DNA of 34,384 nucleotides, from positions 1-34,384 of IMG/VR virus record IMGVR_UViG_3300005512_000158; one strand, given 5' to 3'. Under the pieces are notes generated by a model. It ran no database searches. It saw only the letters and a program-made list of their open reading frames with translations, and had not been told where the DNA came from. This DNA comes from a virus (Duplodnaviria; Caudoviricetes). Below are positions 4,733 to 25,899 of this stretch, piece by piece. Numbering within the stretch: position 1 is the stretch's first letter; each line of letters opens with the position of its first letter. Position numbers and translations under genes: made by a program.

Positions 4733-5569
4733 ATGATGTACGCACAGCTGCAGTTTGGCGCTAATTTTTACAGCATTGATATACCTAATGGCTGGGACCA
4801 ATTAACACCAGAACAGTTTGAAGCCGTAAACTACATTAAGTGCACCAGCACAGATAAGCGGCTAATGGTATTCGAGGTGCTAATGGCTTTACTACCATTA
4901 ACGCGCGCACATCTTTCTGGCTTAGTGCTGCACCTGCTGCAAATTAAGCAATGGCGCGCAGCATTTAATATGGCGCTGCTTTACGTGTTTTTTGATAAGC
5001 GTAAACTGTGGCAGTTTTTTGCTACTGATGATGTAATTGATGCACTGCCAGCCATAGATTGGCTTTTTGATAATAAGCAGAATAAGTTTACCAGTGCCAT
5101 ACCTAAATTAAAGCACAAAGGCATTAATTACAATGGTCCACGCACGCTGCTTAGCGGTGTTACTTGGCAGCAGATGAAGCTGGCAGATACTATTATTCAG
5201 CGCTTTGTAGATACTAAAAACGAAGCTTTGCTTAATGATTTAGCAGCGGTGCTTTACGTGCAAGAAGGCTACCAGCTTAATGTTGAGGATGAAAGCGTGC
5301 CAGAGCGCATAAAGTTGTTTACTAACCTGCGCGCACCGCTTAAGTATGCTATTTACACCAATTACGTACTGCTGCGCGATGCATTTTACCAGCAGTTTGA
5401 GTTACCCACTGCAGAAATAGCACTGGAAGGCCGCCCAGATTGGGAAGCCGTAACACTTTCTGTGGCAGAAAATGGCAGCTTGGGACCGTACCAAGATGTG
5501 GAAAAAACGCCAGCACGCACGGTTCTTAAGTATTTCGAGAAAAAACACAAGGAAACCAAGAATAAATAA
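4733..5569 (+). CDS. Hypothetical tail-module protein (possible tail assembly chaperone)
   Basis: 278 aa, IPNGWDQLT motif; first gene of the tail operon; function from position only. Confidence 0.4.
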   Translation: MMYAQLQFGANFYSIDIPNGWDQLTPEQFEAVNYIKCTSTDKRLMVFEVLMALLPLTRAHLSGLVLHLLQIKQWRAAFNMALLYVFFDKRKLWQFFATDDVIDALPAIDWLFDNKQNKFTSAIPKLKHKGINYNGPRTLLSGVTWQQMKLADTIIQRFVDTKNEALLNDLAAVLYVQEGYQLNVEDESVPERIKLFTNLRAPLKYAIYTNYVLLRDAFYQQFELPTAEIALEGRPDWEAVTLSVAENGSLGPYQDVEKTPARTVLKYFEKKHKETKNK

Positions 5570-13672: not shown

Positions 13673-14839
13673 CTATTTGTAAAGGCTAATATTTGCAGCT
13701 TCGTCTTTAAGCCGTTCGCGGCTAATATGCACGTAAACCATAGTGGTTTTAATATCTGCGTGGCCAAGTATGCGCTGCAGCACTTCAACTTTACCACCTG
13801 CATTTAAAAAGCCAGTAGCATACGTGTGGCGCGCTGTGTGGAAGGTGAGCTGCTTCTTTATTCCTGCAGCTTTAGCCACCACCTTTAAACAGCGGTTTAT
13901 GTATTGATCTGTTTGAGTATCGAAAAAGTACTTACCACTTAGATGGTGCACCCACTGCTGCCAGTTTTCTGGTAGTGGTATCTGCACGCGCTTACTTTGT
14001 CCACTTGTTTTTTGCGGCACCAGCACCAGTACATTATCGTAAACATCATCTACACCGACATTATGAATATCCGAAATACGCAAACCACCACAGTGGCAGC
14101 TAAATAAGTACTTTTTTAATGCGTAATGTGTCCCTTTATCTAAGCGTTTGCTGCTTAGTAGCTGCACCAGCTTTGCCACTTCGGAGTTATTCAAGTATTC
14201 GCGGTGGCCATTAATGTGTTTTATCTTAAAATCTTGGTATGGGTTTGGCGCGCCATACTTCTTACACATTTGAAGCATTACACGCTTAGCCATACGGTGG
14301 TGCTTCATTCTGCTATTATTATTGTAACGCTGGCGCAGCATTGTATCGAAGCGCTTTACCAGTTCTGGTGTTACCTGCATAATTGTAAGCTGTGGCATAA
14401 ATTCCTGCAGCAGCTTCTGGTTTGTTCTGTATTGCTTTAAAGTGCTGGCAGCAAATATGCCGCTGTGCAGTTCTAAAAAATGGCCATAAAATTCCTGCAC
14501 ACTTACAGCATCATTACCAGAAGCGTAAATGGCTTTAAACGTTTGCACATCTAGTGGCTGCTGTTTTATCCGGTAATTAAAAAAGGTTTGCTGCACCTTA
14601 TTAATTATGCCGCCCAGTTCTAGGTTTGCATTATCTACAGCTTTGCGGCTAAGAGGTGCTTTTTTATTGTAAACCACCAGCTGTTTTTCTTGGTCCCAAT
14701 TTAACTGGTGCAGCATTTGCCCAGTACTTAGTACCACTTTTTTCTTGTTTATGTAGCACTTTAGGTGCAGTGGTTTTATATCGCTGGTTTTACAGCGATC
14801 TGTACGGAGTATGAAACGTGCAGTATAACGTGGTACCAT
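13673..14839 (-). CDS. int: Phage integrase, tyrosine recombinase of Bacteroidota type (arm-binding + SAM-like + catalytic domains)
   Basis: GLRISD, KT, FHTARHTYAT, LGHADIKTTMVY; beta-rich N-terminal arm domain; likely start MVPRY at 14839 because the ORF-track extension runs into att repeats. Confidence 0.93.
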   Translation of the reverse strand: MVPRYTARFILRTDRCKTSDIKPLHLKCYINKKKVVLSTGQMLHQLNWDQEKQLVVYNKKAPLSRKAVDNANLELGGIINKVQQTFFNYRIKQQPLDVQTFKAIYASGNDAVSVQEFYGHFLELHSGIFAASTLKQYRTNQKLLQEFMPQLTIMQVTPELVKRFDTMLRQRYNNNSRMKHHRMAKRVMLQMCKKYGAPNPYQDFKIKHINGHREYLNNSEVAKLVQLLSSKRLDKGTHYALKKYLFSCHCGGLRISDIHNVGVDDVYDNVLVLVPQKTSGQSKRVQIPLPENWQQWVHHLSGKYFFDTQTDQYINRCLKVVAKAAGIKKQLTFHTARHTYATGFLNAGGKVEVLQRILGHADIKTTMVYVHISRERLKDEAANISLYK

Positions 14840-14844
14840 ATTTT

Positions 14845-15010
14845 GCGGTGTGTGTCGTTTGTGTGTCGGTAAAAACCTAAAGCAGCACAGCACTTTTGTA
14901 CTTAAAAAAAGAAAAGCCGCTTACAAAGCGGCTTTTTTGTGGTACCAGCTGTACCACAAAAAGCGCTTAAACCGTACTTAAATGCAGCGGTGTGTGTCGT
15001 TTGTGTGTCG
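14845..15010. other. Putative attP: two identical 24-bp direct repeats flanking a 12-bp inverted-repeat core
   Basis: GCGGTGTGTGTCGTTTGTGTGTCG at 14845-14868 and 14987-15010; core TTTTTGTGGTAC-cagct-GTACCACAAAAA at 14934-14962. Confidence 0.75.
14912..14938. terminator. Bidirectional terminator-like hairpin within the att region
   Basis: AAAAGCCGCTT-aca-AAGCGGCTTTT with A/T tracts on both sides. Confidence 0.65.
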
Positions 15011-17562: not shown

Positions 17563-20500
17563 TTGATACACCGAACCACCATAGATGCCTGCTACGATGT
17601 AAAGCTTACTGCTGCCATTGAAAAACTGGGCACACCACTTAAAAAACAAGGCGCGCAGCACACTGGCCGCTGCCCTTTTCATAATGAGAAATCGCCAAGC
17701 TTTCACGTAAACGATGCCAAAGGCATTTACAAGTGCTTTGGCTGTGGCGAAGGCGGCAACAATGCTGTGCAGTTTTATATGAAACGCAAAGGCTTAAGCT
17801 ATCCGGAAGCGGTAGAAGCGGTGGCCAACGATTTTGGCATTGTAATAGAACGCACCGATAGCGAACAAGATAAAGAGTACATACAGCAGCAGGACCAAAT
17901 GCAAAAGCTGGCGGCCTTTAACGAAGCTGCGCTTAAAAAATGGCAGCAGTTTGATGTGCCAGAAGATGCTAAGCGCCACGCCAACTGGCAAGAATTTGAA
18001 CTGGTGTACGCACCCAAAGCCAACACCATTAAAGATGCCACTAAACCTGCGCAGCACGCCACGCTGCACAGCATTGGTTTGCTTAGCTATTCAGATGCTA
18101 ACGAGCAGCATTTTGATTTTTGGCGGCACCGTGTTTTATTTCCTATTAGAAACCTGCGCGGCCAGCTGGTGGCGTTTGGTGGGCGTGCCATAGATCCAAA
18201 CGAAAAAGCTAAGTACATAAACACCAAAAGCACTGCGCTTTTTGATAAGAGCAAAACACTTTACGGCCTGCATTCTGCCAAAGGCGAAATAAGAAAGCGT
18301 GGCTTTGCTTACATAGTAGAAGGCTATTACGATGTAATGGCAATGCACGCAGCAGGTTTAGCCAATGCCGTGGCACCGTGTGGTACTGCACTTACCGAAG
18401 GCCACCTGCAGCTGCTGCAGCGCTTTACAGATACCCTAGTGCTGGTTATGGATGGCGATAAAGCAGGCGTAAAAGCGGCAGATAAAGCAGCACGCTTGGC
18501 AATAAGCAATGGCTTTAATGTGCAAGTGTGTGTGCTGCCAGATGGGCTGGACCCAGACGACCTGGTGCAAACAACCGTAAAAGATGATATACAAGATGCC
18601 GTAACGGATATACTAGAAGCAAACACCACAGATGGCATACTGTGGCTATCTGGCACCATTTACAATGCTAAAGACAACCCAGCCGAACGCAGCAACCAAC
18701 TAAAGCAAATTGCTGCACTGGTGGTGGCGGTAGATGATCCATTTACGCAGCAGGCTTACATTGCCGATATTAAAAAAGCACTTAAGCTTACTGGCAATGC
18801 GTTTGAACGCTTGGTGAAAGATATGAGCCGTACGCAGCTGCGCGAAGATCCAAACAATACCAACGAGTTTGAGCAGGCAGATGGCAAAAACTACACACTG
18901 CCAAAAGGCATAAATGTGCAGTGGTCGGTAGTGCGTAAGCAGGTAACAGATTACGGCTTTTTTATCCATAAGCAGCGCATTTATATGAGCCGCAAAGGTG
19001 GCGAAGATGATAACGGCACGGTGCGCTACTTCTTTAAAGATGTTTCAAATTTTAGCATTCGCATTATTCAGCACATGCAGGATGAAAAAAAGCCAATGCG
19101 CTTGGTGGAAATACATAATGTGCACGGCAGAAAAATAACCTTCGACACTAGCACCGATGATTTTGTAAGTGAAGCATCATTTAAAAAGATGATTGAAGGC
19201 AAAGGCAACTTTAGCTGGATGGGTAAAGGCACCGACTTTGAACGCCTAATGCTTAAGCTTAAGGAAGATATGGGCGATGGCCGTATGGTGCACATACTTG
19301 GCTGGCAGCCAGAGGGGTTTTGGTGTTTTAATAATATGGTGGTAAAGCAGGATGGCACCACCGTGCAGCCAGACCAGTACGGCCAGTTTCAAGTAGATGA
19401 AACCAGTTATTACATACCAAGTGGTAACGAACTTTACGCCACCAATGAGTTTAAGTTTGGCCCACAAAAGCTGGTAAAATACCAAGAACCGCAAAAGCCA
19501 TTAAAAGAGTATTATAAAATGATGGTGGGCGTGCATCGCGAATATGCTTACACCGCCATACTGTTTGGTATTGCCACCGTGTTTTCAGATATTATTTATG
19601 GCCAGCTGCAAAGTTTTCCGCTGCTGTTTTTATATGGTCCTGCAGGTACGGGTAAGGATCAACTGATACACGCCACGCAGTCTTTGTTTGGGCACCCACA
19701 GCCAGCACTAGAACTTACTGGCGCTGCCAACACAGCTAAAGGAACTATGCGCGACTTGGCGCAGTTTAGAAACCTGCCTGCGCATTGGTCGGAGTTTAGA
19801 AACGGCAAAGGGCTGGAAGATATGCTTAAAGGTATCTGGGACCGTAAAGGCTACAAGCGCGGTACTATTGACCACGCATTTGCAAACGAAGTGCTGCCAG
19901 TGCTTAGCACACTTATTTACACGGGTAATGATTACCCTACAAACGATGCGCTTATAGATAGAATGGTGGCGCTAGAATTAACAGTTAGCCAGTTTGATGC
20001 AGAAGCAGATAAACGTTACAACCAACTTAAAGAAACCATACTGCAAGGCGTAAGCGGTTACCTTAAACAGCTGCTGCCACTGCGCGCGGTATTTGAGCGT
20101 GATTTCTGGAAACAGCACAAAACAGCCACCAAGGCTTTAAAGAAAAAACTGGCGGCACTAGATGTAAGTAGCAGAATGGTGCAGAATGCAGCCACGCTGG
20201 TAGCCACGTTTGATTTAGTAGAAGCAGCGCTGCCATTGCCATTTACCAAAGATGAATACCTGCAGCACCTTTTTAATGCTTACGAAAAGCAAATAACCAA
20301 ACGAAGCACCGGCAGTGCTACAATGCGCTTCTGGGAATGTGTACTGGCTGCCATTAGAGATAAGAACAATCCACTGCGCCCAAATTTCGATTTTAGGCTA
20401 GATGGCGATAGCTTAACCATACAATGGAGTGCCGTTTACCAAGCTTACCAGGTAAGGTGCTGGCAGCTATTTCACGAACGTGCAGAAAGCCGCGCGGTGC

Positions 20501-20769
20501 TAGATGATGATTTGAAAAAAAGCAGCGCATTTAAAGAAGCAAAAGGCAGTGTGCGCTTTAGCGATAAAAAAACCAGCGGCTGGGTATTTAGCACCAGCGC
20601 CATTGGCGGCACGTTTACAGAAGATTTAATGGCAGCCATAAACGTTTACGAGTTAAACCAAGGGCGCGGTGGCGCAGATAAGAGTTACGAAGATTTAAAA
20701 GCAGAAGCTAAAACCAATGGCGAACCTGCCACGGCTAAAGATGGTGTGGATGATGGTCTACCTTTTTAA
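17563..20769 (+). CDS. DnaG-type primase fused to a C-terminal P-loop helicase-like domain
   Basis: CHC2 zinc finger CPFH...CFGC; FGGR, KYIN; Toprim VEGYYD and DGDKAG; Walker A GPAGTGKD. Confidence 0.92.
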   Translation: MIHRTTIDACYDVKLTAAIEKLGTPLKKQGAQHTGRCPFHNEKSPSFHVNDAKGIYKCFGCGEGGNNAVQFYMKRKGLSYPEAVEAVANDFGIVIERTDSEQDKEYIQQQDQMQKLAAFNEAALKKWQQFDVPEDAKRHANWQEFELVYAPKANTIKDATKPAQHATLHSIGLLSYSDANEQHFDFWRHRVLFPIRNLRGQLVAFGGRAIDPNEKAKYINTKSTALFDKSKTLYGLHSAKGEIRKRGFAYIVEGYYDVMAMHAAGLANAVAPCGTALTEGHLQLLQRFTDTLVLVMDGDKAGVKAADKAARLAISNGFNVQVCVLPDGLDPDDLVQTTVKDDIQDAVTDILEANTTDGILWLSGTIYNAKDNPAERSNQLKQIAALVVAVDDPFTQQAYIADIKKALKLTGNAFERLVKDMSRTQLREDPNNTNEFEQADGKNYTLPKGINVQWSVVRKQVTDYGFFIHKQRIYMSRKGGEDDNGTVRYFFKDVSNFSIRIIQHMQDEKKPMRLVEIHNVHGRKITFDTSTDDFVSEASFKKMIEGKGNFSWMGKGTDFERLMLKLKEDMGDGRMVHILGWQPEGFWCFNNMVVKQDGTTVQPDQYGQFQVDETSYYIPSGNELYATNEFKFGPQKLVKYQEPQKPLKEYYKMMVGVHREYAYTAILFGIATVFSDIIYGQLQSFPLLFLYGPAGTGKDQLIHATQSLFGHPQPALELTGAANTAKGTMRDLAQFRNLPAHWSEFRNGKGLEDMLKGIWDRKGYKRGTIDHAFANEVLPVLSTLIYTGNDYPTNDALIDRMVALELTVSQFDAEADKRYNQLKETILQGVSGYLKQLLPLRAVFERDFWKQHKTATKALKKKLAALDVSSRMVQNAATLVATFDLVEAALPLPFTKDEYLQHLFNAYEKQITKRSTGSATMRFWECVLAAIRDKNNPLRPNFDFRLDGDSLTIQWSAVYQAYQVRCWQLFHERAESRAVLDDDLKKSSAFKEAKGSVRFSDKKTSGWVFSTSAIGGTFTEDLMAAINVYELNQGRGGADKSYEDLKAEAKTNGEPATAKDGVDDGLPF

Positions 20770-20810
20770 GTAATTATATTATGAGTAAGCAGGTTATTAC
20801 ATTTAAAAAC

Positions 20811-20843
20811 CACCACTGTAAGTAATTGAAAAACAAACAGTAA
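20811..20843 (+). repeat. 33-bp perfect direct repeat, copy 1
   Basis: CACCACTGTAAGTAATTGAAAAACAAACAGTAA, identical to 23608-23640. Confidence 0.95.
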
Positions 20844-20847
20844 ACTG

Positions 20848-21645
20848 ATGAACACCAACAAGTACATAAACGATTTTAAGGTGCACTTAGAGTGCGCAAA
20901 CTACAGCAGCAGAACAGTAAGCACATACTGTTCTTTACTTAAGCGGTTTTTAAATACCGGATGGCAGGCAGATACGCCAAAGCAGATAAACACCAACCAG
21001 CTTAAGCTGTACATAGCAAGGCAGAACTGCACCAGCACTATGCGCCAGGTACACGGAATGCTTAACCACTTTTACCAGTGTTTAGGGCAGCCGCGTAAAA
21101 TGAAGTACATACCGTATCCAAAAAAAGAAAATAGGCTGCCAACCGTGCTGCCTAAAGAAGTGATAAACCAGAAAATAAAACAGATCACTAACGTAAAGCA
21201 CCAGTGCATTTGTATGCTGCTTTACGGCTGTGGGCTGCGCGTATCTGAAATTACCAACTTAAAGCTGGCAGATATTGACAGCAAAAGGATGGCGCTAAAA
21301 GTGGTATGCAGTAAAGGCAAAAAAGACCGACTGCTGCCGCTGCCTGCACACCTGCTGTTTAAGCTTAGGCAATACTATAGAATTTACAAACCCAGCACTT
21401 ACTTGTTTGAAGGGCAGAACCAACGCAAGTACACCACCGTAAGTGTGCAGCGCATTACTAAAAAGCACTTACAGTGCAACCCACATACCTTAAGGCATTC
21501 TTACGCCACGCATAGCCACGAAAGCGGTACACCACTAGCTGTTCTGCAGCAGCTTCTTGGCCATAGCAATATTAAAACCACTATGGTTTACCTGCATATT
21601 AGTAATGCACAAATGCTTAACGCTGTAAGCCCGTTGGCGGCTTAA
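20848..21645 (+). CDS. Second tyrosine recombinase, IntI/XerD-related (SAM_4-like N-terminus, no arm domain)
   Basis: NYSSRTVSTY; LLYGCGLRVSE; KGKKDR; HTLRHSYATH; LLGHSNIKTTMVY; all catalytic residues R-K-H-R-H-Y present. Confidence 0.92.
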   Translation: MNTNKYINDFKVHLECANYSSRTVSTYCSLLKRFLNTGWQADTPKQINTNQLKLYIARQNCTSTMRQVHGMLNHFYQCLGQPRKMKYIPYPKKENRLPTVLPKEVINQKIKQITNVKHQCICMLLYGCGLRVSEITNLKLADIDSKRMALKVVCSKGKKDRLLPLPAHLLFKLRQYYRIYKPSTYLFEGQNQRKYTTVSVQRITKKHLQCNPHTLRHSYATHSHESGTPLAVLQQLLGHSNIKTTMVYLHISNAQMLNAVSPLAA

Positions 21646-21671
21646 ATTATCCAGAGTACATACAAACCTGC

Positions 21672-21699
21672 AGCCCTGCCTTAAAGGTGGGGCTTTTTT
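21672..21699 (+). terminator. Intrinsic terminator, family copy 2
   Basis: AGCCCTGCC-ttaaa-GGTGGGGCT followed by a T run. Confidence 0.8.
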
Positions 21700-21831
21700 G
21701 TACCACCTATTTACCCAACTGCTGGTGGTTTAATAAATCGGAAAATTAAATTTCGTAATTAGTGTTTAAACACTGAACTACGAAAAAGGCGCTTTTTGCC
21801 GATTCAATTTCTGAAACGTGTTTTTAGGTAC

Positions 21832-22053
21832 AGACAACTTCGGACAAATAATAAACACTTAAAAATCAATTAATTACATCTAAAAACTGTCCGAAATACC
21901 GCCCGATGTTGTCCGATGTTGTCCGAAGGTAAAAAAAACCACTTCGGACAACTTCGGACATAAAAACGTGGTTTGTCCGATGTGCTTAACTATTTAAGCA
22001 TTTGATTATTAATACGTTACTGATTTTGTCCGATGTGTCCGATGTGTCCGATG
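21832..22053. repeat. Iteron cluster (TGTCCGA/TCGGACA x10), putative replication origin
   Basis: TCGGACA at 21840, 21944, 21954; TGTCCGA at 21888, 21910, 21920, 21974, 22027, 22036, 22045; AT-rich spacers; non-coding. Confidence 0.75.
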
Positions 22054-22140
22054 CCTTTTTAAGCATCTGCCGCTTAGTTATGTAAAATTGTGTATATTGG
22101 TTGTGCTGAATTTTTACAAAAACTTAAAAAACTAGACACT

Positions 22141-22413
22141 ATGAACATCAAAGCAGAATTAATACTTAGACCCTGCACACCAGAAGATCTGGTGCACTGG
22201 TACGAAGGCGAACGCACCACGCTTAGCCGCCAACGGTTTTACGTGCGCACTAATAATAAGCTAGAGTGCTACACCATTAGCCACTTTAGTGATAAACGCA
22301 CCGTGCTGCAGTTTATGAATGAAAACCGCCTATTTATACCAGCCACAGAAGATTTAGCCGGTACACACACTGGCACCGTACTGCAAGATATAGCAGAATA
22401 TGCAGCAGCTTAA
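22141..22413 (+). CDS. Hypothetical protein whose stop codon lies in the first AAC junction
   Basis: ORF 22090..22413; ATG at 22141 follows an A-rich leader. Confidence 0.65.
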   Translation: MNIKAELILRPCTPEDLVHWYEGERTTLSRQRFYVRTNNKLECYTISHFSDKRTVLQFMNENRLFIPATEDLAGTHTGTVLQDIAEYAAA

Positions 22414-22463
22414 CGGTTAGTGTAAACGCCTGTACTTGTATGGCGTTTTACACATTGTTGTGC
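22408..22463 (+). other. attC-like site 1 (56 bp)
   Basis: GCTTAAC ... GTGTAAACGCC / GGCGTTTTACAC stem with a 1-nt bulge ... GTTGTGC. Confidence 0.65.
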
Positions 22464-23172
22464 ATAGTAGGCGGATTTAAAACAGAAAACTAAATGAAAG
22501 TACTAAACTTATACAGCGGAATAGGGGGCAACCGAAAAGAGTGGAATGGCCCAAATTTAGATATTACGGCCATTGAATACGATGAACGTATAGCAGCTAT
22601 TTATAAAGACTTATATCCTAAGGATAATGTAATAGTTGGTGATGCTCACGAGTATTTGCTTAATCATTATGAAGAATACGACTTTATCTGGGCTTCACCG
22701 CCTTGCCCCACACATTCGGTTACAAATCACTTTCTAAATGCACAAGGCGTAAAACGATACCCTGATATGGGATTGTATCAAGAAATAATCCTGCTGCAAA
22801 CATTCTTTAAAGGAAAGTATGTAGTTGAAAATGTAAAGCCATACTATGAGCCACTAATTAAACCACAAGAAAGCGGTAGGCATTATTTCTGGGCAAATTT
22901 TAAGATACCTAAATTAAAAGTGGAAAGTAGTATTGGAAGAATGGGGCCTGTAAAAAGTAAAGGGGGGGCAAGGACTGAAGGGGATAATCACCATAAATTG
23001 GGTTTTGATTTAAGCAAATACGATTATCCAAATAAAAAGAAGCTGCTAAATAACTGTGTTGCTCCCGAAATTGGAAAGGCAATATTTGAAGCTGCACTTG
23101 GAATATATCAGGCAAACAACATTAAGCAAGTAGGTTTATTTGATGCACTCAGTTAAGCCTATTATGCACAAC
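22457..23172 (+). mobile_element. IR-bounded cassette carrying the methyltransferase
   Basis: GTTGTGCATAGTAGGC (22457-22472) and GCCTATTATGCACAAC (23157-23172) are 15/16 complementary. Confidence 0.7.
22494..23156 (+). CDS. DNA cytosine-5 methyltransferase (compact)
   Basis: Motif I NLYSGIGG, motif IV WASPPC, motif VI VVENV, motif X-like NCVAP. Confidence 0.88.
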   Translation: MKVLNLYSGIGGNRKEWNGPNLDITAIEYDERIAAIYKDLYPKDNVIVGDAHEYLLNHYEEYDFIWASPPCPTHSVTNHFLNAQGVKRYPDMGLYQEIILLQTFFKGKYVVENVKPYYEPLIKPQESGRHYFWANFKIPKLKVESSIGRMGPVKSKGGARTEGDNHHKLGFDLSKYDYPNKKKLLNNCVAPEIGKAIFEAALGIYQANNIKQVGLFDALS

Positions 23173-23475
23173 GGCCACAGCTATGGGTAGCGCGTACCAC
23201 AACAACGAAACGAGATACTAACCTTAAAATTTAGAGTGCGATGGAAAGCAAATTTGATGTAGTTGCAGCATGGTGTAGATGCAATAAGATTGTTCTGGCA
23301 ATGACAACCGATGAATACCAAAGGAGTGGGAAGCCAGAGATTGATGCCTTTTTTGATATGGGGTACAAAATTGGAAGAACAACTAAAGCGGTTGCTCGAA
23401 ACTTGTTCGGGTGCGAGTGCGCAAGTCAAAACGCTTCCACGAGTGATGAAGCGTTACCTATGGCTGATGTTGTAG
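23166..23475 (+). other. attC-like site 2 expanded to 310 bp, with coding sequence in its loop
   Basis: GCACAAC-GG ... CAGCTATGGGTAGCGC (23178-23193) / GCGTTACCTATGGCTG (23451-23466) ... GTTGTAG. Confidence 0.6.
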
Positions 23476-23582
23476 GGCAAAGCGAACTGTTAGTTTGCGA
23501 ACATCTTGAAAGCGATTTGGTTGAGATAAGGAAAGGCGTTAAATTGTGTAAATGTTCGGTATGGATAGAAGAAGCAAACTAA
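23241..23582 (+). CDS. Hypothetical protein spanning two IR-bounded modules
   Basis: 113 aa; crosses the 23469 junction as ALPMADVVGQSELL; C-terminal C.H...CKC mini-domain. Confidence 0.65.
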   Translation: MESKFDVVAAWCRCNKIVLAMTTDEYQRSGKPEIDAFFDMGYKIGRTTKAVARNLFGCECASQNASTSDEALPMADVVGQSELLVCEHLESDLVEIRKGVKLCKCSVWIEEAN

Positions 23583-23593
23583 TTGCGTACAAC
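23469..23593 (+). mobile_element. Small IR-bounded cassette encoding the C-terminus of ORF 23241
   Basis: GTTGTAGGGCAA[agcgaactg]TTAGTTTGC pairs with GCAAACTAATTGCGTACAAC (23574-23593). Confidence 0.6.
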
Positions 23594-23607
23594 GGTAGGA
23601 TAAAAAA

Positions 23608-23678
23608 CACCACTGTAAGTAATTGAAAAACAAACAGTAAGAACACCCAAACCAACAAGTATTTAAAGTGCTTTAAGG
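23608..23678 (+). repeat. 33-bp direct repeat, copy 2, plus degenerate remnant of the recombinase 5' end
   Basis: 23608-23640 identical to 20811-20843; then ACCAACAAGTAtttaaagtgcTTTAAGG versus ACCAACAAGTAcataaacgatTTTAAGG in the recombinase gene. Confidence 0.88.
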
Positions 23679-23704
23679 ACCAGCATATTTAGCTGGTCCT
23701 TTTT
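23675..23704 (+). terminator. Intrinsic terminator closing the cassette array; overlaps a GTCCTTTT promoter motif
   Basis: AAGGACCAGC-atattta-GCTGGTCCTT followed by Ts. Confidence 0.75.
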
Positions 23705-23751
23705 ACATTCTGCTTACAGCCATACTTTGGTACAAACCAAGGTAAAAACCA

Positions 23752-25443: not shown

Positions 25444-25899
25444 ATGGCACTGCAGATAAGCATAAACTTACCGTGCAAACCTTATGTGGCGCACTACCTG
25501 CGCAACAAGTTTGGCAGCCCTTTGCAAATAAGTAGAAGCGCTGCAGAAGGCAAAATGCTTTTTAATTTGCTAGAACGAGCGCGGCACGATACTGACCTTA
25601 AAACAGCACGCTACACCGAAATAGTAGAAGTACTACTGGCAGAAGGTATTTACCTGCGCCACGGCTGGGAATTAACACCCACAGCCATTACCGAGTTTAA
25701 CAACTGGCTGGAAGAAATACTTAAAGAGCGTTTTGTGGTGCACGTAGATGCCTGCACCAGTTATGGTATTAAAAAAGCGGTAGCCATACGCGATTGGCAA
25801 GATAATTACAACTTTCCAGAAGATGTTTGGAAGTTTGAAACACTTAAAAAATACCACGATAGGCGCGAAAAAGCACGCCAATGCTTAAAAGTGGCTTAA
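25444..25899 (+). CDS. Putative transcriptional regulator (late activator candidate)
   Basis: N-terminal beta-alpha ISINLPCKPYVAHYL (RHH-like) and basic C-terminal helices FETLKKYHDRR; precedes the head genes. Confidence 0.45.
   Translation: MALQISINLPCKPYVAHYLRNKFGSPLQISRSAAEGKMLFNLLERARHDTDLKTARYTEIVEVLLAEGIYLRHGWELTPTAITEFNNWLEEILKERFVVHVDACTSYGIKKAVAIRDWQDNYNFPEDVWKFETLKKYHDRREKARQCLKVA

Follow-up and report, generated by a model that had tools for sequence, protein, structure and literature searches.

The virus record IMGVR_UViG_3300005512_000158 (Duplodnaviria; Caudoviricetes) was analysed over its whole length, a window of 34,384 nucleotides (nt) that encodes a terminase, a protease, a tape measure protein, lysis genes and a long primase. 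Behind the primase gene, the locus considered here opens with an intact gene for a short tyrosine recombinase of 265 amino acids (aa) (20848..21645; like the primase gene, this and the other features of the locus are on the plus strand unless stated otherwise), followed by a terminator-like hairpin (21672..21701, consensus match only), an origin-like region (21821..22046, without assigned strand), an open reading frame (ORF) of 107 aa of no known family (22090..22413) and a series of inverted-repeat hairpins with AAC and GTT cores that alternate with small genes. It ends with a second, decayed copy of the recombinase start. We propose that this is probably a two-cassette array belonging to an integron-like system that is widespread among Bacteroidota phages. 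The short recombinase would act on hairpins of folded single-stranded DNA, cutting cassettes out and inserting them at AA|C.

All the coordinates and motifs of the original prediction, which was made from the sequence alone, are present in the window. AACGG starts at positions 22412, 23170 and 23591, and TGTTGT at 22456 and 23468. The AAC junctions lie, as had been described, at or just after stop codons, which end at 22413 (overlapping the first AAC), 23156 and 23582. Each AAC end also complements the GTT start of its own cargo, over 15 of 16 nt for cargo 1 and over 6 nt, followed by a mismatch and a bulge, for cargo 2. These elements had been taken for four separate modules. They are best read as two cassettes, each composed of a hairpin site and the cargo to its right, as in the few pairs of relatives in which the site goes with the downstream cargo.

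Cassette 1 (22414..23171, with ends set at the presumed AA|C crossovers) consists of hairpin site B1, a short AAC...GTT site of 48 nt (22412..22459; covariance model, folding and alignment), and of a 220-aa ORF resembling C5-cytosine DNA methyltransferases (22494..23156; PF00145, E = 4.7e-8; motifs YSGIGG, SPPC and ENV). Cassette 2 (23172..23592) joins site B2, a long site of 302 nt (23170..23471; hairpin scan and weight matrix) whose loop contains a gene start, to a short cargo. A 113-aa ORF in it (23241-23582), which belongs to no known family, continues across the GTT core. The same arrangement, with a gene start in the loop, was read in Leef_1 gp37 and Ingeline_1 gp26. The motif at the start of the cassette-2 cargo recurs in two other viral loci (L244 and L005), and a scan with the 113-aa ORF found no relative of the whole cassette. 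The 107-aa ORF in front of the array is probably a resident gene. It was rejected as a cassette since the hairpin scan shows no site upstream of it, and the ESM Atlas returned no family for it. A covariance model was built from 19 short sites, all from other phages; it matches B1 (22405-22466) with E = 0.003, and there is no other match below E = 5 in the window. Weight matrices for the 5′ and 3′ arms were derived from 140 sites of relatives, and the 5′-arm matrix, run over both strands of the window, ranks 23170 first and 23591 second.

The recombinase comprises SAM_4 and catalytic domains and possesses all six catalytic residues (R131, K156, H213, R216, H239 and Y248). The insertion specific to IntI is absent: the alignment to the IntI structure 2A3V splits into two pieces, with some 50 residues lacking in front of HxLRH, and a separate alignment takes 319 columns for 265 residues. 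The IntI family model TIGR02249 scores 154.8, below its cut-off of 265. This agrees with the earlier description of the locus as integron-like, with cassettes and a tyrosine recombinase other than IntI. The best match in both sequence and fold is archaeal XerA, although the score of NF040815 (181.8) stays under the family cut-off of 220. DNA invertase models reach 32-35 bits against 221. The closest recombinases are 66-74% identical to the window enzyme, that of the Freya phages just 28%. In a quick tree of 81 proteins, the clade of the window enzyme groups with phage recombinases that have arrays upstream (SH-aLRT 91).

In addition, we identified a 78-nt direct repeat (20804-20881 and 23601-23678) that was absent from the original prediction. 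The left copy spans the leader of the intact recombinase and its first codons; it has an exact 33-nt core at 20811-20843 and no YAAC core in front. The right copy carries the identical core (23608-23640) followed by a decayed recombinase 5′ end, in which the start codon is lost, 24 of the 34 following nt are identical and the residues TNKY...FK are kept; it runs into a terminator-like hairpin that closes the unit (23675..23705, consensus match only). The last AAC of the array ends at 23593, 51 nt before the position that matches the recombinase start in this right copy, and the stretch 23591..23644 is a candidate docking (attI-like) site with an IHF-like motif at 23616-23628 (one mismatch). 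The intact recombinase gene lies 2.8 kb upstream of this site, across the origin-like region, and 0.8 kb from the first hairpin site, with the terminator, the origin-like region and the resident ORF in between.

The likely docking site thus stands at the far end of the array, before the decayed recombinase start, which suggests that the array has its usual polarity and that the recombinase gene has moved. An array downstream of a co-oriented recombinase had at first been taken as the layout of the system. That part of the prediction does not hold, as the sites of relatives are upstream; judged from its sequence, the window platform is one that was split by a local rearrangement, and not a new layout. 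A duplication within this lineage with opposite losses is likely the simplest history of the split, and insertion of a circle at the 33-nt core would be an alternative. One locus (L062) has the same phosphoesterase behind the recombinase as the window, but a different backbone, and is uninformative on this history. No duplicated recombinase leader of this kind was found in the 230 loci tested, which contained two other duplications. An assembly artefact is unlikely because both flanks differ and identity decays past the 33-nt core. A 14-codon frame after the primase (20781-20825) enters the left repeat copy and is perhaps the remnant of a gene disrupted by the arrival of the recombinase.

The origin-like region holds all ten window copies of TGTCCGA, in both orientations, together with the only two perfect IHF-like motifs of the window (21864-21876 and 21995-22007), scored with a consensus that we take to be that of IHF. 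Regions of similar make-up are found behind the recombinase of Leef_1 and of Ingeline_1 and behind the primase of laban6-1 and of 6H, and the composition and position of the window region point to a likely replication origin. Across 73 recombinase leaders the IHF-like motif is perfect in 20, as compared with 1.0 in shuffles.

The methyltransferase cassette is found again in another phage. Over 763 nt (22412-23174) the window is 95.7% identical to locus L244, with 696 of 716 nt identical in the part from GTT to AAC, while the flanks are different: 10 of 60 nt are identical before the first AAC and 19 of 60 after the last AACGG. The similarity stops at the AAC cores, and the cassette stands among different neighbours. 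It had been predicted that cargo would vary among phages with breakpoints at AAC, and both this cassette and the phage Freya_6 described below bear this out. Viral contigs contain 67 relatives of the methyltransferase gene. A GTT or AAC boundary adjoins the gene in nine more homologues (L245, L247-L254 and L257, less L246); most homologues with less than about 60% identity lack one. From its family, the methyltransferase likely protects the phage against host restriction. In L244 (about 1494-2070), one array unit seems, by eye, to hold a reverse-strand gene, and this resembles a cassette taken from a chromosomal array. An inversion system was considered and rejected, as shared cassettes retain their direction and change their neighbours.

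To place this array among its relatives, we used a profile of 17 recombinases and retained the best 80 of at least 547 viral loci from 33 of 64 collection parts which, with Leef_1 and Ingeline_1, gave 82 loci. On the recombinase strand, 170 sites lie upstream of the gene (308 kb) and three downstream (446 kb), so that the junction motifs do co-occur with the recombinase family, as anticipated. The opposite strand has four sites upstream and two downstream, and shuffled upstream DNA has three. Among the 41 loci with 3 kb on either side, at least three sites are found upstream in 21 and downstream in none. Cargo starts pair with their own ends at all four core-adjacent positions in 69 of the 131 pairs of neighbouring sites; when the comparison is made across one site, this number falls to 6 of 131. 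The arrays of relatives usually close with an AAC some 51-52 nt ahead of the recombinase start: a YAAC is present at exactly this distance in 45 of 73 relatives, and within 30-66 nt of the start in 71 of 73, a loose count without shuffle control. Two pairs of loci (L017/L019 and L037/L038) have a common leader and differ in the sequence left of the docking AAC.

The inheritance of the sites was compared over 226 sites in 106 loci. Nine pairs have only the downstream cargo in common; four of them retain both arms of the site at an identity of at least 0.9, one more differs by a 1-nt indel, and the other four, which include B1 of the window against L244, have a site of like length that is more changed. 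When only the upstream cargo is common, the site is kept in none of three pairs. These pairs are few, and they place the crossover at the AAC, so that a cassette is a site plus the cargo to its right. The same cassettes, with complementary ends, occur in different neighbourhoods with similarity ending at AAC. Stem mismatches on the coding strand are G-T at 154 positions and C-A at 15, although both were scored alike, and the coding strand is the better-folding one in 127 of 135 short sites. Pairing of the inner stem is retained through two-sided changes in 12 of 13 pairs, a result that is partly circular given that the sites were chosen for pairing. The spacer measures 5 nt in most sites (134 of 167), while the spacing of the arms ranges from about 45 to more than 400 nt. 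In the window, the arms of B2 have predicted fold energies of -18.1 and -12.2 on the two strands, and closing cassette 1 into a circle would change the predicted hairpin energy from -11.5 to -23.5 kcal/mol.

Similar AAC...GTT hairpins were also noticed at positions 1972 and 5224 of a Pacearchaeota metagenome-assembled genome (L172) and at 5187 and 6051 of L091. In the archaeal contig they lie upstream of a 268-269-aa recombinase, on the strand of the gene, as in the phages.

Cultured phages provide further comparisons. Four of ten Freya records were compared (Polaribacter phages Freya_10, _1, _8 and _6, loci L384-L387), and these otherwise identical isolates differ in the array before the integrase, with ends at AAC. 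Over 43,978 nt, Freya_1 and Freya_10 are 100% identical, and the 4.9-kb array is missing from Freya_1, with AAC at both ends; Freya_8 lacks 902 nt between two AAC cores; and Freya_6 differs from Freya_10 by two breakpoints within the record, both at AAC and one of them at the docking site. The size range of the Freya genomes, 44.0-48.9 kb, appears to reflect gain and loss of cassettes. In four Flavobacterium psychrophilum phages with 99% identical backbones (6H, 1H, 23T and FPSV-D35; L313-L316), arrays located 1-5 kb behind the primase have cassettes added, moved or duplicated at TAAC, where several shared blocks end. No short recombinase was found in the fetched loci of these four phages.

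Related recombinases were also detected in host genomes: for two orders of Bacteroidota, 105 of 401 and 72 of 151 of the genomes sampled carry them. The chromosomal enzymes that were read are mostly 345-405 aa long. Many of their genes have an ATATA...GTT motif behind the stop codon, the reverse of the phage AAC-TAYTATAT. Sixteen longer chromosomal regions were scanned: in four of them, three or more sites lie on the opposite strand behind the gene, the phage layout occurs in one, and the remainder have one site or none. Gene direction in the chromosomal arrays was judged by eye. This mirrored motif and the opposite-strand sites make phage and host appear to share one family of sites in mirror orientation. 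One genome has thirteen matches, twelve of them 300-aa frames, with ten lying within about 120 kb (G551:C1, about 1.87-1.98 Mb); this is perhaps a recombinase moving with its own element.

From these observations we infer the role of the enzyme and a single-strand mechanism, as we do the origin and the anti-restriction function. The AAC before the recombinase start would serve as the docking site, beside which incoming cassettes would enter, and the coding strand would be the one that folds and recombines. An excised cassette would close into a circle, with its two ends lengthening the hairpin. This geometry would be that of an integron placed on the other strand, with the genes reversed. In the window, the intact recombinase would act on the array from its position 2.8 kb upstream.

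A number of observations weigh against this reading. The crude hairpin scanner returned two sites in the window, B1 and B2, compared with 0-2 in ten shuffles, and is therefore no proof on its own. Position 22412 is outside the top 12 of the 5′-arm scores, 23469 is only 11th for the 3′ arm, and B1 in its array form has almost the same predicted fold energy on the two strands (-9.0 and -9.3), hence no strand bias. The junctions of Freya_1 and Freya_8 coincide with the origin of the record and could be ends of the assembly, and some breakpoints among the four F. psychrophilum phages are not at AAC. The intact recombinase has no adjoining AAC core, unlike most relatives, so its link to the window array is one that we infer. 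Between the window and L244, B1 is far more diverged (arm identity 0.65-0.70) than the cargo, a difference for which simple co-transfer offers no explanation. Finally, there are arrays without a detected recombinase in P12002L (whole genome), in five Duneviridae loci and in L244 (a 63%-complete record). The last three points would be accounted for if the window array were an orphan that has lost its own recombinase to decay and is no longer served by the intact copy, exchange being due to an enzyme of the host or of a co-infecting phage, or to homologous recombination through the hairpins. The decayed start at the docking site and the many related recombinases of Bacteroidota genomes would also fit. 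We regard this as a serious but unlikely explanation: the upstream gene is full length with all its catalytic residues, shares an identical 33-nt leader with the docking site and belongs to the same lineage as the decayed copy, and breakpoints at a 3-nt core are hard to obtain by homologous recombination.

The enzyme might instead recombine double-stranded sites, like Xer at dif, with the hairpins being palindromic binding sites. While this agrees with archaeal XerA being the best sequence and fold match and with the missing IntI insertion, it becomes highly improbable when the variable arm spacing, the tenfold preference for G-T mismatches on one strand and the stems of varying sequence that keep their pairing (the latter with the circularity already mentioned) are taken into account. 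An RNA function of the hairpins, in processing or translation control around small genes, beside a recombinase that would be an unrelated resolvase next to the origin, would explain why the coding strand folds better, why the start codon of long sites is hidden in a loop and why an origin-like region follows the recombinase here, in Leef_1 and in Ingeline_1. Nonetheless, the folding strand of the same sites in chromosomal arrays is opposite to that of the recombinase gene, AAC marks the ends of gains and losses, and the sites are confined to one side of the recombinase, which leaves this explanation with hardly any credence.

To our knowledge, among recombination systems that work on folded single strands, integrons alone are well studied, and an enzyme that does the work of IntI without its insertion would be a second solution to folded-strand recombination. 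We lean slightly towards the view that Bacteroidota phages have such a second, IntI-independent cassette recombination, with a cassette pool shared in mirror orientation with rAID-like host arrays. It would account for much of the small-gene mosaicism of these phages, including the spread of anti-restriction methyltransferases. Beyond that, and far more speculatively, the 2,797-bp unit between the 33-nt repeats could loop out as a circle carrying the recombinase, the origin and the array; this would restore the order array, docking site, recombinase, and with the phage primase replicating it, the circle could behave as a small satellite and carry arrays from one phage to another. We consider this improbable. 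Freya, Leef_1 and Ingeline_1, which are cultured on non-pathogenic hosts, carry the platform, and as Freya isolates already differ by cassettes ending at AAC, they offer a ready experimental system. The window contributes a cassette that is nearly identical in another phage, a platform that is split, and a link to a published site that IntI1 did not use.

The primase is DnaG-like with a long C-terminal part (17563..20769; Pfam/PHROG), is 31.5% identical to that of Flavobacterium phage laban6-1 (tblastn) and has its closest cultured relatives in Duneviridae phages infecting Flavobacterium and Cellulophaga, which suggests a Bacteroidota host. Scans with single proteins (primase, 107-aa ORF and 113-aa ORF) returned no locus of a close relative of the window phage; a scan with the window recombinase returned one, incomplete, in which no array was seen behind the gene, and a degenerate motif of the recombinase clade gave one match. 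Metagenome and genome scans for close relatives (3 of 64 parts) had only distant ones among the matches listed. Apart from the short recombinase, the phage encodes an arm-binding integrase, a lysogeny integrase (13673-14893; Pfam/PHROG). An exact 24-nt direct repeat (14845-14868 and 14987-15010) has one copy within the 5′ end of this frame and the other 140 nt upstream; these are possible arm or operator sites. Further downstream, 25444-25899 is homologous to Leef_1 gp39 (23% identity, E = 9e-11 pairwise). In Leef_1 this gene follows the origin-like region, whereas in the window the array and a phosphoesterase intervene.

As to known systems, the original prediction recognised no named system with this layout. 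This stands for the phage platform with its own recombinase, of which no description was found in the literature searched (few subscription papers, with bioRxiv supplements outside the search). In the parts of these sources that we consulted, only an "integrase" is noted for Leef, Ingeline and Freya (PMC8776804), and PMC8618304 and 10.1101/2024.07.02.601686 add nothing further on the phage layout. It does not stand for the sites, since one from P12002L is published as an attC (PMC9892861) and rAID-1, as far as its description was seen, is similar (10.1101/471110). According to the sections available to us, the Polaribacter phage P12002L contains a CALIN, a cluster of ordinary attC sites, with methyltransferases and no cognate enzyme named; of six sites, its attC1 was the only one not recombined by IntI1 (PMC9892861, Qi et al. 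2023). Our covariance model has six matches in P12002L and the best of them (E = 4e-10) is this published attC1, which aligns with B1. The P12002L cluster thus shares with the window the site family and methyltransferase cargo, and the predicted bottom strand, as given in that part of the paper, is the coding strand. It differs in that P12002L has no such recombinase in its whole genome whereas the window has one, which is no IntI; the published cluster is described as lacking an integrase. If our proposal is true, the published negative result on attC1 would be open to reinterpretation.

The rAID-1 elements of Bacteroidales are described, in the portion of the source that we could consult, as a chromosomal XerD-family recombinase followed by an array of small low-GC genes with integron-like intergenic repeats (10.1101/471110). 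Likened by description, rAID-1 is likely a chromosomal cousin of the phage system, and the chromosomal relatives that we fetched show that layout together with the same hairpin family. In rAID-1 the recombinase comes first, with immunity genes directly behind; its definition asks for a recombinase more than 44% identical to BF9343_RS08045, with at least two co-directional genes behind it. Many of the fetched relatives have their docking-like motif after the stop codon, some have sites on the opposite strand, and the phage form is the mirror image of that arrangement. The cargo also differs: interbacterial immunity genes of at most 41% GC there, a methyltransferase and an ORF of no known family here, where GC is 36.9% in cargo 1 and 44.8% in B2 and where other elements separate the recombinase from the array. 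A search of a genus for rAID-1 enzymes gave no match at E <= 1e-28, the genus in question not being shown to be Bacteroides. Among other tyrosine recombinase systems, XerA acts on dif and has no cassette array. In shufflons and other DNA invertase systems segments invert between inverted repeats, whereas the window cassettes retain their direction.

Integrons (VchIntIA, PDB 2A3V) are alike in their tyrosine recombinase, AAC and GTT cores, complementary cassette ends and variable arrays. They also share a docking site at the 5′ end of the recombinase gene, seen in relatives and here at the decayed copy but absent at the intact one, and, at the level of the family, hairpin sites with one better-folding strand. 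They differ in several respects. The window enzyme has 265 aa, against 320, and lacks the IntI insertion, which is held essential for IntI in the part of the source seen (PMC8138268); this counts against our proposal as well. Phage genes are oriented toward the docking site, each preceded by its hairpin, whereas integron genes read away from the integrase with attC behind. The spacer is mostly 5 nt in phage sites against 2 nt, an asymmetric spacer stands in the phage family where attC has extrahelical bases in its L box, the loops of phage sites may hold gene starts, and the system is owned by the phage. Because the enzyme lacks the IntI insertion and the genes are reversed, the phage system, as its sequence suggests, works like an integron but is not a member of that family.

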